Shown: one piece after another, positions 8,263-14,319 of the stretch
Layout of the letters: each line of letters opens with the position of its first letter
Numbering within the stretch: position 1 is the stretch's first letter
IMG/VR virus record: IMGVR_UViG_3300042502_001806
DNA length: 64,000 bases
Reading direction: 5' to 3' (one strand)
From: an uncultured virus (IMG/VR IMGVR_UViG_3300042502_001806)
Lineage: Duplodnaviria; Heunggongvirae; Uroviricota; Caudoviricetes
The notes under the pieces: model-generated
What the model saw: only the letters and a program-made list of their open reading frames with translations
The model's database searches: none
Told to the model about the DNA's origin: nothing
Made by a program: the position numbers and the translations under genes

Positions 8263-8868
8263 ATGGCGACTATAAAAAAGTTTAATCAATTTAATACATC
8301 TGAGTGGATAGGACCGTTGAAGGTTCTTGATATTAAAGAAAATACAGTTTATACAAACTTTGGTAACTTCTTCAATAAATCAGAAAATAAATTAACAGTA
8401 GGATATTCTTATATTTTAAGAGTTGTTAATAATGATATTGTTGATACAGGAATGTCTTGTGTCGATTTAGTTGTTCTTATTGATACAGGTACAAACTATA
8501 AAGTTCTTTCTATTAAAAGAGGTCGAGCACCATTTGTTGGTATGTGGGCTAATCCAGGAGGAAACATTGACGAGGGTGAACAACCTTTAGATGCCGCTTC
8601 TCGTGAGTTAGAAGAAGAAACAGGACTTATGATACCTAGTAAGTATTTTACTTATGTAGGTGCTTTTGATAAAGAGTTCAGAGATCCTCGTAATAAAAAT
8701 TGTGTTAGTCATGCTTTCGTTATTGTTTTAGATGAAATGCCAGTTGTTAAAGCTGGTGATGATGCTACAGAATGTACTTGGAATGATGTAAGTTATGATG
8801 GTGATGTAACCGTTGATATGGCATTTGACCACGCAGAAATAATTAAAAAATCAATTCAATCAATATGA
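8263..8868 (+). CDS. NUDIX hydrolase (ADP-ribose pyrophosphatase-like)
   Basis: Nudix box GGNIDEGEQPLDAASRELEEETG; RDPR, AGDDA, AFDHAEI. Confidence 0.92.
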   Translation: MATIKKFNQFNTSEWIGPLKVLDIKENTVYTNFGNFFNKSENKLTVGYSYILRVVNNDIVDTGMSCVDLVVLIDTGTNYKVLSIKRGRAPFVGMWANPGGNIDEGEQPLDAASRELEEETGLMIPSKYFTYVGAFDKEFRDPRNKNCVSHAFVIVLDEMPVVKAGDDATECTWNDVSYDGDVTVDMAFDHAEIIKKSIQSI

Positions 8869-9353
8869 GTATTAAAAACTTAAAAGAACCATTTGTTATT
8901 ATCCTTATCGGACCACCTCTATCTGGTAAATCAACTTGGATTAGAGAAAACTTTCCAACGACTGAAGTAATTAGTCGTGATGAAACTGTTATGGAAGTCT
9001 ATGGTTCAAGAAACTATACTGAGGCATTTAACAATGTAGACCAAAAAGAAGTAGATAGAGTTTTAACTCAAAAGTTTTTAGATGCTAATTTGGTTAAAAA
9101 GAATGTGATTGTTGACATGACACACATGGCTTCTAAGCGTAGAAAGCAAAATCTAAACTATTTCTCAGATGATTACTATAAGTTGGGTGTTATCTTTCCA
9201 ATTCTTTCAGATGATGAATATGTAAGACGTAATCAAAAAAGAATTGAAGAAGAAAATAAAGATCTTCCAATGAGAATTGTTAAGTCTATGATTTCTTCTT
9301 ACCAACCAATCACAACAGATGAAGGGTTTAACAAAGTAATTACATTAAAATAA
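8865..9353 (+). CDS. AAA_33 / polynucleotide-kinase-like P-loop kinase
   Basis: GPPLSGKST Walker A, ISRD, VIVDMT, RNQKR lid, EGF tail. Confidence 0.85.
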   Translation: MSIKNLKEPFVIILIGPPLSGKSTWIRENFPTTEVISRDETVMEVYGSRNYTEAFNNVDQKEVDRVLTQKFLDANLVKKNVIVDMTHMASKRRKQNLNYFSDDYYKLGVIFPILSDDEYVRRNQKRIEEENKDLPMRIVKSMISSYQPITTDEGFNKVITLK

Positions 9354-12095: not shown

Positions 12096-12131
12096 ATTGT
12101 ATATATTAATTATTTGTACTATCTTTGTGAT

Positions 12132-12545
12132 ATGAAAGTAAGTTTTGATTTTGACCACACGTTATCTAGAAAAGATGTTCAGGTATTTGCCAAACAATTG
12201 GTAGATGAAGGACACGAAGTTTGGATTGTTACCTCAAGATTTAGTGATGAAGCGGCAAAAGAAAAGAAGTGGCATTGGATAGAAGGACAAAATCAAAAAC
12301 TATTTGATGTTGCGGAAGAATGTGGTATTAAAAAAGAAAATATTCAATTCACTTGTATGGAATCTAAGTCTTACTTTTTAGAAGGCAAAGGATTTATATT
12401 TCATTTAGATGATGATGATATTGAATTGATGGATATTTTTGAGTCTAATAAATTTGACCAAAGTAAATGTTTCCCAGTTCATGTAGACCATTTTGAGTGG
12501 AAAGAAACTTGTCGAAATATTTTGAAGAAAAATTTGGCAGAATAA
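12132..12545 (+). CDS. HAD-superfamily phosphatase-like protein
   Basis: MKVSFDFDHTL (DxD), IVTSR, HLDD; start at 12132 after TATCTTTG. Confidence 0.8.
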   Translation: MKVSFDFDHTLSRKDVQVFAKQLVDEGHEVWIVTSRFSDEAAKEKKWHWIEGQNQKLFDVAEECGIKKENIQFTCMESKSYFLEGKGFIFHLDDDDIELMDIFESNKFDQSKCFPVHVDHFEWKETCRNILKKNLAE

Positions 12546-12564
12546 GAAATAAGTATTATCTTTG
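12533..12564 (+). promoter_or_regulatory. Bacteroidota-type promoter
   Basis: TTTG 12533-12536, 20-nt spacer, TATCTTTG 12557-12564. Confidence 0.75.
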
Positions 12565-12672
12565 TGTAACAAAAGAGATAAAAAAGATTAAAGATAACCT
12601 AAACGGTGAGGGACATTAAAAGTAAAGCACGAAGCTTGAGCCCAAATAGGAGGCGGTCACCGTCCGAAAAAT

Positions 12673-12759
12673 GAGGAAGTAACAAAGTGGTCAAATGTGG
12701 TTGTGTCGTAACACAGCTGGCTTTTAAGTCTTCGGAGGTTCGAATCCTACCCTTCCTCA
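12673..12759 (+). tRNA. tRNA-Tyr-like (GTA) with expanded anticodon loop and bulged T-stem; possibly a pseudo-tRNA
   Basis: Acceptor GAGGAAG/CTTCCTC with A73; long variable arm; GGTTCGAATCC; GTTGT-GTCGTAAC-ACAGC 8-nt loop. Confidence 0.65.
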
Positions 12760-12809
12760 CAAAATTTGCGGTTTTTTACAACTTTTAAAAATCACAAAGT
12801 ATAACCTAT

Positions 12810-13049
12810 AGAGTTTTCGTAGTGGTTGACTCTTAATTCTCCTAACGGAGGGGTCTGTTTTTACAGGGTGGATACCAAACTCCACGCAAAGTTTTCGTAG
12901 TGGTTAACTAACCCTTTAACTAGGGGGTCTGTCTTGAACAGTGTGGGTACCAAAACCCACTCTACTTAAAAAGAGTTTTCGTAGTGGTTAACTCTTAATT
13001 CCTCTTAACAGAGGGGTCTACTCCAAGTAGGGTGGGTACTGAACCCCAC
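12810..13049 (+). ncRNA. Three tandem copies of a 70-80-nt four-hairpin structured RNA motif
   Basis: Copies at 12810-12885, 12890-12960 and 12971-13049; invariant GTTTTCGTAGTGGTT with compensatory stem changes. Confidence 0.75.
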
Positions 13050-13067
13050 ACTAAACACATTTCATTA

Positions 13068-13166
13068 ATGAATTCAGAAATCTACGCGGCTATTGCCACA
13101 CCTGTAGTTCTATTGTCTACTCTAGCAATAGTAATCTACAAGGAGAAGAAAAAAATGAGAAAATAG
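13068..13166 (+). CDS. Small membrane peptide (32 aa, MNSEIYAAIATPVVLLSTLAIVIYKEKKKMRK)
   Basis: One hydrophobic helix plus a basic tail, lying between the RNA repeats and a terminator. Confidence 0.55.
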   Translation: MNSEIYAAIATPVVLLSTLAIVIYKEKKKMRK

Positions 13167-13176
13167 AGAAAATTCG

Positions 13177-13205
13177 ATCCTATCAAAATGATAGGATTTT
13201 TTTTT
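13177..13205 (+). terminator. Intrinsic terminator
   Basis: ATCCTATCA-aaa-TGATAGGAT followed by a T run. Confidence 0.8.
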
Positions 13206-13271
13206 GATATTTAATAAAAAAATCATATCTTTGCTGCTATAAAAAATATAATCTAAAACATATTTATATTA

Positions 13272-13760
13272 ATGAAATTAGAAATTGAACGCAAATTTTT
13301 ACTAAAAGCTATGCCTGACATATCTCCAACCGAGATTGTTAAAATTGATCAGTATTATTTTAAAAACTCAAGTGGTACTTGGGAAAGAGCCAGATCTTGG
13401 GATTCTAATATCAAGGGTAAATCGTATATTCATACTGTAAAGAAAAGCGTTTCAAAAGGTGTCAACCTTGAAGATGAAAAATTTCTAAGTGAAAAAGAAT
13501 TCAAAGAGTTCAAATCGCATTGTTTATTATCTACAACCGAGTCTAGATTCATAACTAAAGAAAGATGGATTTATCCCGATGGTAATCTATACTGGGAAGT
13601 AGATATGTTTAATAGTGGTCACCATCTTATTGTGGCTGAAATTGAAATTCCTACAAAAAATCATAAAGTAAACATTCCTAAGTTTATAGAAGATAAACTT
13701 TTACTTGAAGTAACAGGATTAAAACAATTTAGTAATAGAAACCTTTCTAATAAAATATAA
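13272..13760 (+). CDS. CYTH domain protein (triphosphate tunnel metalloenzyme)
   Basis: EIERKFL, KER, WEVDMF, VAEIE, EVTG...SN. Confidence 0.9.
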   Translation: MKLEIERKFLLKAMPDISPTEIVKIDQYYFKNSSGTWERARSWDSNIKGKSYIHTVKKSVSKGVNLEDEKFLSEKEFKEFKSHCLLSTTESRFITKERWIYPDGNLYWEVDMFNSGHHLIVAEIEIPTKNHKVNIPKFIEDKLLLEVTGLKQFSNRNLSNKI

Positions 13761-13770
13761 TATAAAAAAT

Positions 13771-14319
13771 ATGAAGAAATTAGAATTAAGAATGTATGGT
13801 CTCGTACCTTATAATATCTCACCTATTCAACAAGCTATTCAATTTGGACACGCTGTTGTTGAGTATGGTCAGAAGTTTAGAAATGATAACTATAACGATT
13901 GGGCCGATAACTGGAAAACATTTATCATCTTAAATGGTGGTACAACAAATCACAAAACTTCTTTAGAAGATGGATTACCATTTGGTAGTCTTAACAATCA
14001 CTTACTCACTTTAATGGATAATGGTATTGAGTTTGCTCAATTCAACGAACCTGATTTAGGTGACCAACTTACAGCTGTTGTTTTTATTGTTGATGAAAGA
14101 GTATTTAATAAAAAGAAATATCCTGACTTTGAAGATTGGGTTATTGAGAAATATGGTGATTTAATTACAGGTGGTGGTACTGCTTACCAAGTTGCTAAAA
14201 GAATAAAAGAATCAACTTCTAAAAAAGATCAAAAAGTTTATCAAGAATGGATTAAACTTATAGGTGGTGAAAAGAATGTTTTCTTGAGAGATTTCTTAAA
14301 AAACTTTAGATTGGCATAA
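13771..14319 (+). CDS. Peptidyl-tRNA hydrolase PTH2-like protein
   Basis: IQFGHAVVEY, FIILNGG, FNEPDLGDQLTAV. Confidence 0.6.
   Translation: MKKLELRMYGLVPYNISPIQQAIQFGHAVVEYGQKFRNDNYNDWADNWKTFIILNGGTTNHKTSLEDGLPFGSLNNHLLTLMDNGIEFAQFNEPDLGDQLTAVVFIVDERVFNKKKYPDFEDWVIEKYGDLITGGGTAYQVAKRIKESTSKKDQKVYQEWIKLIGGEKNVFLRDFLKNFRLA

Follow-up and report, generated by a model that had tools for sequence, protein, structure and literature searches.

What are three similar repeats, lying one behind another between positions 12810 and 13049, doing in a phage genome? The stretch of DNA analysed here, referred to throughout as the window, is 64,000 nt long. From its letters alone, an earlier note described the repeats as three copies of a four-hairpin non-coding RNA motif. 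The three copies are real, and the hairpins, the named stems, the GGT linker and the TACYRAA loop are all present. All copies are on the plus strand. Copy 1 (12810..12885) contains hairpins H1 (12810-12833), H2 (12838-12851), H3 (12855-12866) and H4 (12868-12885), with an invariant 12-nt H1 loop at 12816-12827. Two short strands predicted to form a pseudoknot, RGU and ACY, are at 12852-12854 and 12874-12876, and the copy is followed by a tail (12886..12889), G-C-A-A, made up of a discriminator-like base, a C74-like base and two further bases. Copy 2 (12890..12960) has H1 at 12890-12909, H2 at 12912-12925, H3 at 12929-12941 and H4 at 12943-12960, with the H1 loop at 12894-12905, RGU at 12926-12928, ACY at 12949-12951 and then a tail T-C-T-A. 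Copy 3 (12971..13049) has H1 at 12971-12996, H2 at 13001-13014, H3 at 13018-13030 and H4 at 13032-13049; its H1 loop is at 12978-12989, RGU at 13015-13017 and ACY at 13038-13040, with a G-U pair in the pseudoknot. Its tail (13050..13053) is A-C-T-A, the commonest tail both of the RNA family and of these phages' tRNA genes.

The spacing of the copies is 78 and 84 nt. A 15-mer core occurs exactly three times in the window; allowing up to two mismatches gives four matches, against 0.18 expected, and four were reached in none of 100 shuffles. The covariance model finds exactly three copies across the 117-kb record (about 47% complete), with a score for copy 1 of 80.7 bits that is high by construction. 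Folded singly, copies 1 and 3 give the four hairpins and copy 2 gives them in part (z of -1.5, -0.4 and -2.0 for copies 1, 2 and 3), while the minimum free energy fold of the unprocessed triple array mixes the copies (z of -3.0).

The note could assign no known family, and the Rfam check bears this out. At the gathering score the whole window yields seven tRNAs, none of them at the repeats, and a search of 12500-13300 to an E value of 10 gives four weak matches, again none on the repeats. Neither Rfam nor ARAGORN calls a canonical tRNA (RF00005) at 12810-13049, and the motif differs from canonical tRNA in having no cloverleaf, no 5'-3' acceptor pairing and no anticodon and T loops. In the literature the 12-nt loop, whether written as DNA or as RNA, was found only in papers on unrelated topics, and a description of the motif was not found. 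A catalogue of phage structured RNAs (PMC10690425) gave no match in four of its six text supplements, whose tables may carry no sequences, and its remaining large or zipped supplements may list the motif.

Some other identities were tried and rejected. An rRNA target or mimic was dismissed on finding that the longest matches of a 19-nt core to three Bacteroidota rRNAs, 6-8 nt, are the same as those of shuffled cores, and no antisense target was found on the opposite strand of the phage's own genome. Readings of the H4 loop as Twister-like, and of the H3/H4 junction as T-box-like, both disagree with the order of elements and with the natural variants.

Matches to the core pattern were found in 17 viral and 107 metagenome loci. 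Of the 157 core matches in these 124 loci, 114 are covered by an alignment of 78 distinct copies, the three copies of the window among them; the 43 others fall outside it and none has the full layout. Among those outside are an end copy reduced to H1 (L119/L191), an H1 that follows a tRNA-like end (L151) and an H1-like hairpin (L179). Others lie in protein-coding DNA, many of them antisense to the start of one bacterial gene, which by eye looks squalene synthase-like; these were treated as chance matches. In L179, at about 290-330, the same 12-nt loop is found in a different, G+C-rich hairpin ahead of an open reading frame, with the rest of the motif missing.

The aligned copies all belong to a single phage group and do not count as independent. 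Given 78 homologs, RNAalifold produces the same four helices unprompted. With the pseudoknot included, 97.6% of the cells in the alignment pair, and 12 of the 20 pairs change on both sides; as a control, sliding the partners against each other lowers pairing to 35-56%. H2, H3 and H4 covary, which upholds the description of the motif as a structured non-coding RNA with covariation. It had also been claimed that the stems change compensatorily while the loops are conserved. This is borne out for the stems of H2 to H4 and for the H1 loop, but not for the core stem of H1, whose pairs served as the search anchor and show no covariation, nor for the H2 loop. The latter is variable (3-6 nt): the TAAC described in it is found in only 14 of 78 copies, GAAA, GAGA and others also occur, and in a single copy, the first of L171, H2 is missing altogether. 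The H3 loop is not conserved. The most conserved pairs are the three end pairs of H4, with G-C in 70, U-A in 77 and G-C in 78 of the 78 copies.

The H4 loop had been suggested to pair either with the GGT linker or with the 5' loop. The linker pairing is favoured by covariation. One pair between the linker RGU and the ACY of the H4 loop is G-C in 56, G-U in 11, A-U in 10 and mismatched in 1 of the 78 copies, figures to be read with the knowledge that the alignment parser demanded this pair and that the mismatched copy, L174, was added by hand. Placed on a tree, the pair shows five joint changes that keep pairing, and ranks second of 3021 column pairs among those at least 90% pairable. The other two pairs of the pseudoknot are nearly invariant and add no covariation, and for the alternative pairing with the 5' loop both sides are invariant across copies. 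Covariation thus supports RGU:ACY as a predicted H-type pseudoknot. H2 abuts RGU directly, with no gap, in all 77 copies that have H2, and the linker between H1 and H2 is short, 1-8 nt where scored.

All real copies have the same 12-nt H1 loop. A pattern that ignored H1 returned eight real loci, all with the same H1 loop, and two scans with half of the loop freed gave no variant member; relaxed scans for loop variants gave no real locus beyond those of the viral core-pattern search, the extra matches being chance. As far as can be tested, the H1 loop would thus appear to be invariant beyond the bias of the search. Taken together, the comparisons of sequence make it a well-supported conclusion that the repeats represent an uncatalogued family of structured RNA, of about 75 nt and with a new fold.

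The motif is carried by large phage records, which reach 483 kb in IMG/VR and include the 635-kb LR745206.1; those searched whole have one motif locus each. The covariance model finds no copy in the related 642-kb LR756502.1. When loci were fetched by means of the neighbouring CYTH gene, the motif was present within 4 kb in 5 of 13, and is for this reason considered accessory. A blastn search of a collection of isolated phages with the repeats gave no match; this search is insensitive, as the covariance model did find a copy in LR745206.1. The phage ClpC has its best relatives among Bacteroidota proteins (up to 74-78% identity), and Bacteroidota is therefore the likely host phylum of the carrier phages. 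Each locus has one to three copies; most relatives have a single one, and 15 of 64 distinct loci are tandem.

What lies around the motif provides clues to its function. Across the 64 distinct loci, what precedes the first copy is a tRNA or tRNA-like gene in 31 cases, a mini-tRNA in 15, a TATAA-like element (by a loose criterion) in 16 and something else in 2, so that 46 of 64 are behind a tRNA, tRNA-like or mini-tRNA gene. The gap from the discriminator of that gene to the invariant core is 3-7 nt (4 nt in 27 of 45), and the H1 stem begins 2-5 positions past the discriminator. The junction from copy to copy in tandem arrays has the same form as the junction from tRNA to copy, and the linkers between copies contain no common A-rich cut site. 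Behind most single copies comes a tRNA-like gene or a terminator-like hairpin. The neighbouring RNAs are tRNA-like, and either their anticodon loops are abnormal or the anticodon arm is missing altogether. In the window the cluster includes, upstream of the copies, an atypical tRNA-Tyr-like gene on the plus strand (12673..12760) with an enlarged anticodon loop, which ARAGORN labels 'tRNA-???' with a 4-base anticodon; it is 72-79% like phage tRNA-Tyr genes and is missed at default thresholds.

Relatives have similar Tyr-like and Glu-like genes. ARAGORN gives 'tRNA-???' for 33 of 76 distinct genes, and some have hairpin insertions in the D-loop. The mini-tRNA, of about 45 nt, has an acceptor stem and a T-like arm but no anticodon arm; it replaces the tRNA-like gene in its 15 loci, and lies between the GOLLD RNA and the motif, for example in L002, L008, L013 and L014.

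The motif had also been credited with its own promoter. The element proposed, CAAC-N17-TATAA (12779..12804, plus strand, with CAAC at 12779-12782 and TATAA at 12800-12804), is present and is conserved ahead of several tandem arrays, so that a promoter is plausible, but in 46 of the 64 loci the motif instead follows a tRNA or tRNA-like gene. The layout of the window, in which a promoter-like element leads into three copies, a peptide and a hairpin resembling a terminator, is thus a derived minority form. As to expression, ten runs contain 5-38% of the sampled words. In four runs from RNA libraries, flat contigs cover parts of the region in relatives; these may be DNA, and give no strand, ends or level.

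The peptide of this layout is a 32-residue hydrophobic one with a basic C-terminus (13068..13166, plus strand). The peptide has no PHROG match, and a longer, 44-residue form has no Pfam match. It is followed by an intrinsic-terminator-like hairpin and T run (13176..13208, plus strand) that would end the transcript. The note proposed that the array might be a tandem cis-acting switch for this peptide, which is indeed found behind 10 of 15 tandem loci and mainly with tandem arrays, compared with 2 of 49 other loci. This association can reflect shared descent. The peptide occurs at 12 of the 64 loci in all, with none in the available DNA of the other 52 (four of which have less than 220 nt downstream), single copies mostly lead instead into a tRNA-like gene or terminator-like hairpin, and no terminator or start codon overlaps the motif. 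We regard a switch as extremely improbable.

Compact pseudoknots can block exonucleases. The position of the motif between tRNA-like genes in many loci could be that of a non-catalytic element that guides or blocks host nucleases and so affects the processing or stability of the tRNA-operon transcript, with no function as a free RNA. Such an element would not explain the tandem and promoter-proximal copies that have no adjacent tRNA, nor its absence from an otherwise similar operon, and an invariant 12-nt loop exceeds the needs of a spacer. This role is improbable.

A many-based set of invariant unpaired positions together with a pseudoknot is typical of small ribozymes, and both are present in the motif. 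It could belong to a new class of small self-cleaving ribozymes, trimming the 3' trailers of tRNAs much as theta ribozymes do but with another fold; the tandem copies would then either be by-products or serve to cut the transcript into units. The 46 loci behind a tRNA, tRNA-like or mini-tRNA gene place it in the slot of the theta ribozymes, and kinase-, CYTH- and hydrolase-family genes are nearby. Theta ribozymes, which are minimal HDV-like ribozymes, are also described from Bacteroidota phages that have CCA-less tRNAs and CCA-adding enzymes (PMC10879173), and the two kinds of RNA are alike in being small, structured and placed behind CCA-less tRNA genes of such phages. The window's own genome has a match to PF01743 (the CCA-adding/poly(A) polymerase family) at G000:C1:112205-112570, in a frame of 404 residues, and a PF01743 gene is found in this genome and in 4 of 5 records. 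Against cleavage, Rfam contains no ribozyme match up to an E value of 10, and an HDV-like nested-pseudoknot descriptor, run with no positive control, fits none of 89 copies with flanks, so that the motif appears to differ from the theta ribozymes in having no nested double pseudoknot of the kind that holds a catalytic C in J4/2. It differs also in its promoter-proximal and tandem copies, and apparently in its gap to the core, which varies over 3-7 nt, where 77% of tRNA-linked theta ribozymes are within 1 nt (PMC10879173). Moreover 16 of the 64 loci have no tRNA directly upstream, and the tRNAs evidently mature without the motif, because the 642-kb relative has the same GOLLD-tRNA-like operon and no copy. 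Self-cleavage is an unlikely explanation; if it did occur, it would make the family a new ribozyme class.

GOLLD RNA (RF02032; bioRxiv 10.1101/2024.12.08.627333) is a frequent neighbour of the motif in the same operon: 32 of 64 loci have its 3' end, confirmed by Rfam, just ahead of the motif. The motif itself does not belong to GOLLD, and one tRNA-like gene separates it from the Rfam match upstream of it. A partnership or antisense regulation can be imagined, in which the H1 loop pairs with a complementary 9-nt stretch of GOLLD, and of 27 GOLLD loci examined, 13 contain RACCACTAC, the complement of the 3' nine bases of the loop. Twelve of the 27 have a different middle base (two more are unparsed), and in those with a visible partner strand this base changes together with GOLLD's own stem rather than with the loop, which is invariant; most of the stretch falls within the first Rfam helix of GOLLD. 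The motif also occurs in records without GOLLD, two of which are 97% and 94% complete (positive controls were run), and an upstream GOLLD end is missing from 14 of the 15 tandem loci. Such a partnership is very improbable.

The invariance of the H1 loop in all real copies is what might be expected of an RNA whose protein target recognises this loop and the pseudoknot, with no tRNA mimicry, that is, a protein sponge or antitoxin-like RNA comparable to the pseudo-ToxI of phage PhiTE. Pseudo-ToxI is a phage-encoded tandem pseudoknot RNA of variable copy number (PMC3475682), and the expansion here from one to three copies of an H-type pseudoknot, tandem in 15 of 64 loci as in type III antitoxins, recalls such ToxI mimics. 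The patchy presence of the motif, in 5 of 13 CYTH-gene loci, would also fit a sponge. The unit is however twice the 36 nt of ToxI, about 75 nt with four hairpins, three of them extra, its copies are diverged and not freshly slipped, and they share no common A-rich cut site. A bacterial counterpart was found neither by exact pattern in GTDB genomes (0 matches) nor by the covariance model in 151 genomes of the Bacteroidota phylum (0 matches, in a search run without a positive control that a diverged counterpart could have escaped), and no Rfam antitoxin family matched; a cognate bacterial antitoxin next to a ToxN-type toxin was thus not found in these searches. The suggestion of an antitoxin-like repeat is correspondingly weak. 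A sponge of this kind would also leave the tRNA-like tail unexplained, and we consider it distinctly unlikely.

That tail brings us to the best explanation that we can offer, tentative as it is: each copy may be a CCA-matured mimic of the acceptor end of tRNA, acting as a dosage-dependent decoy for a host protein. Following H4 there is an N-C-W-A tail, with A in 57, C in 70, A or T in 74 and A in 70 of 78 copies. The trailers of the phage tRNA and tRNA-like genes in motif loci are closely similar, with A in 61, C in 69, A or T in 62 and A in 61 of 76, and Bacteroidota tRNA genes have the C in 36 of 36 cases and encode CCA in only one of the 36. Ahead of the tail, the elements follow one another in the order H2, a 3-bp strand, an inserted hairpin, a 5-bp stem with the partner loop, and the tail, so that H2, pseudoknot and H4 could stack coaxially in the manner of an acceptor arm. 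The predicted stack is 12 bp in 31 copies, 13 bp in 40 and of other length in 7, but the 71 of 78 with 12-13 bp discriminate little, because H3 is of the same 4-5 bp length in 70 of 78.

On this hypothesis, monomers would be cut from the transcript of the tRNA operon by the nucleases that process tRNA, and a CCA end would be added to each trimmed monomer, which fits the PF01743 gene in the same genome. The monomer might then tie up a host protein that attacks or senses tRNA ends; our guess for the target is, for example, a host toxin acting on tRNA 3' ends by modification or cleavage, or else a synthetase. Tandem copies would raise the dose. Such a decoy comes close to the protein-sponging or anti-defence array that the note proposed. 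The tandem arrays (15 of 64) and the TATAA-like starts with no adjacent tRNA (16 of 64) fit a product that is wanted in amount. A stoichiometric decoy is what we infer from an RNA that cannot decode, that is found among non-decoding tRNA-like RNAs, and that is accessory and variable in copy number. There are precedents for the logic, which are not in themselves evidence: phage tRNAs counter tRNA-degrading defences (PMC11555353), and the expanded pseudo-ToxI repeats provide an RNA-based counter-defence (PMC3475682).

Several features fit less well with an acceptor mimic. The tail could have been inherited from the tRNA operon, or could pair with UAGU/GU of the H1 loop, a full match (RCUA) being found in 30 of 78 copies. 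No tRNA elbow is evident, because there is no T-loop at H2 and no anticodon arm, and H2 is absent in the L171 copy. The H1 loop, the most conserved part of the RNA, is unaccounted for by acceptor mimicry, and a second protein contact there would be a guess. In favour of a mimic, the outer pairs of H4, together with the G that precedes them in 55 of 78 copies, resemble the first bases of tRNA-His from Bacteroidota (one example), and the GTG start is found in none of 36 other host tRNAs compared. Histidine charging is nevertheless doubtful, because C follows H4 in no more than 3 of 78 copies, compared to the C73 of host tRNA-His (one example).

The closest parallels to an acceptor mimic are found in plant and insect RNA viruses, as tRNA-like structures (TLS) of the valyl and histidyl types. 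The valyl TLS combines a T-arm with a pseudoknotted acceptor stack of 4/3/5, and tolerates a stem-loop in the pseudoknot loop (PMC7749636); the stack is fixed at 12 bp for Val and 11 bp for His; and conservation of the T-loop is defining (PMC8127992). Judged by these accounts, the likenesses are a 3' H-type pseudoknot of 3 + 5 bp on a preceding hairpin of 4-5 bp, a discriminator and C after the pseudoknot, an inserted stem-loop as in the NCBV TLS, and an upstream hairpin with a D-loop-like GG. The phage RNA has a pseudoknotted 3' stem of this kind in RGU:ACY with the 5-bp H4, supported by covariation. It is unlike a TLS in being a small RNA at an internal locus in the tRNA cluster of a dsDNA phage, not the 3' end of a positive-strand RNA genome; in having no conserved 7-nt T-loop, anticodon arm or encoded CC(A); and in its invariant 12-nt 5' loop and its tandem copies. 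Since the T-loop, which is defining, and the anticodon arm are missing, it is not a member of the TLS, and at best it may work like the acceptor end of one.

Whatever its role, this is a new RNA fold with a covarying pseudoknot, seen in 78 copies in some of the largest known phage genomes. The RNA family is solid, and its function is a testable guess. If the copies are acceptor-end mimics, the TLS type of pseudoknotted acceptor would extend beyond the ends of RNA-virus genomes, and phages would be using RNA decoys, and not spare tRNAs, against defences that target tRNA. A broader idea, possible but on balance doubtful, is that giant Bacteroidota phages maintain an arsenal of non-decoding tRNA mimics, of which this RNA would be the most radical: a free, CCA-ended, pseudoknotted mimic of the acceptor arm, of a type not known except at the ends of RNA-virus genomes, arisen independently of RNA viruses and amplified in tandem against a host defence that attacks tRNA 3' ends. 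Mimicry and self-cleavage alike would bear on the role of the GOLLD operons and their odd tRNA-like genes. Roles other than those discussed have together a slight chance.

It is worth adding some observations on the surroundings. Genes flanking the RNA cluster are at 8865-9353, 12114-12545, 13272-13760 and 13771-14319, and the families represented are a kinase (AAA_33, with a polynucleotide-kinase-like PHROG), HAD-like, CYTH and hydrolase-family proteins, which suggests an RNA repair region. In L278 (2680-3190) and L279 (2430-2950), several hundred conserved non-coding bases lie upstream of the Rfam GOLLD match, and are probably the 5' half of GOLLD in this clade. Two relatives that lack the motif, L290 and L295, have another conserved hairpin RNA in its place, ahead of the gene that precedes the CYTH gene, and behind this RNA a terminator-like hairpin. 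Finally, the window contains a second small RNA on the plus strand (12603..12666, about 64 nt), closed by a 7-bp stem that is followed by C-C. It has no Rfam match, and is 80-99% identical in relatives, with changes among them in the inner hairpin.
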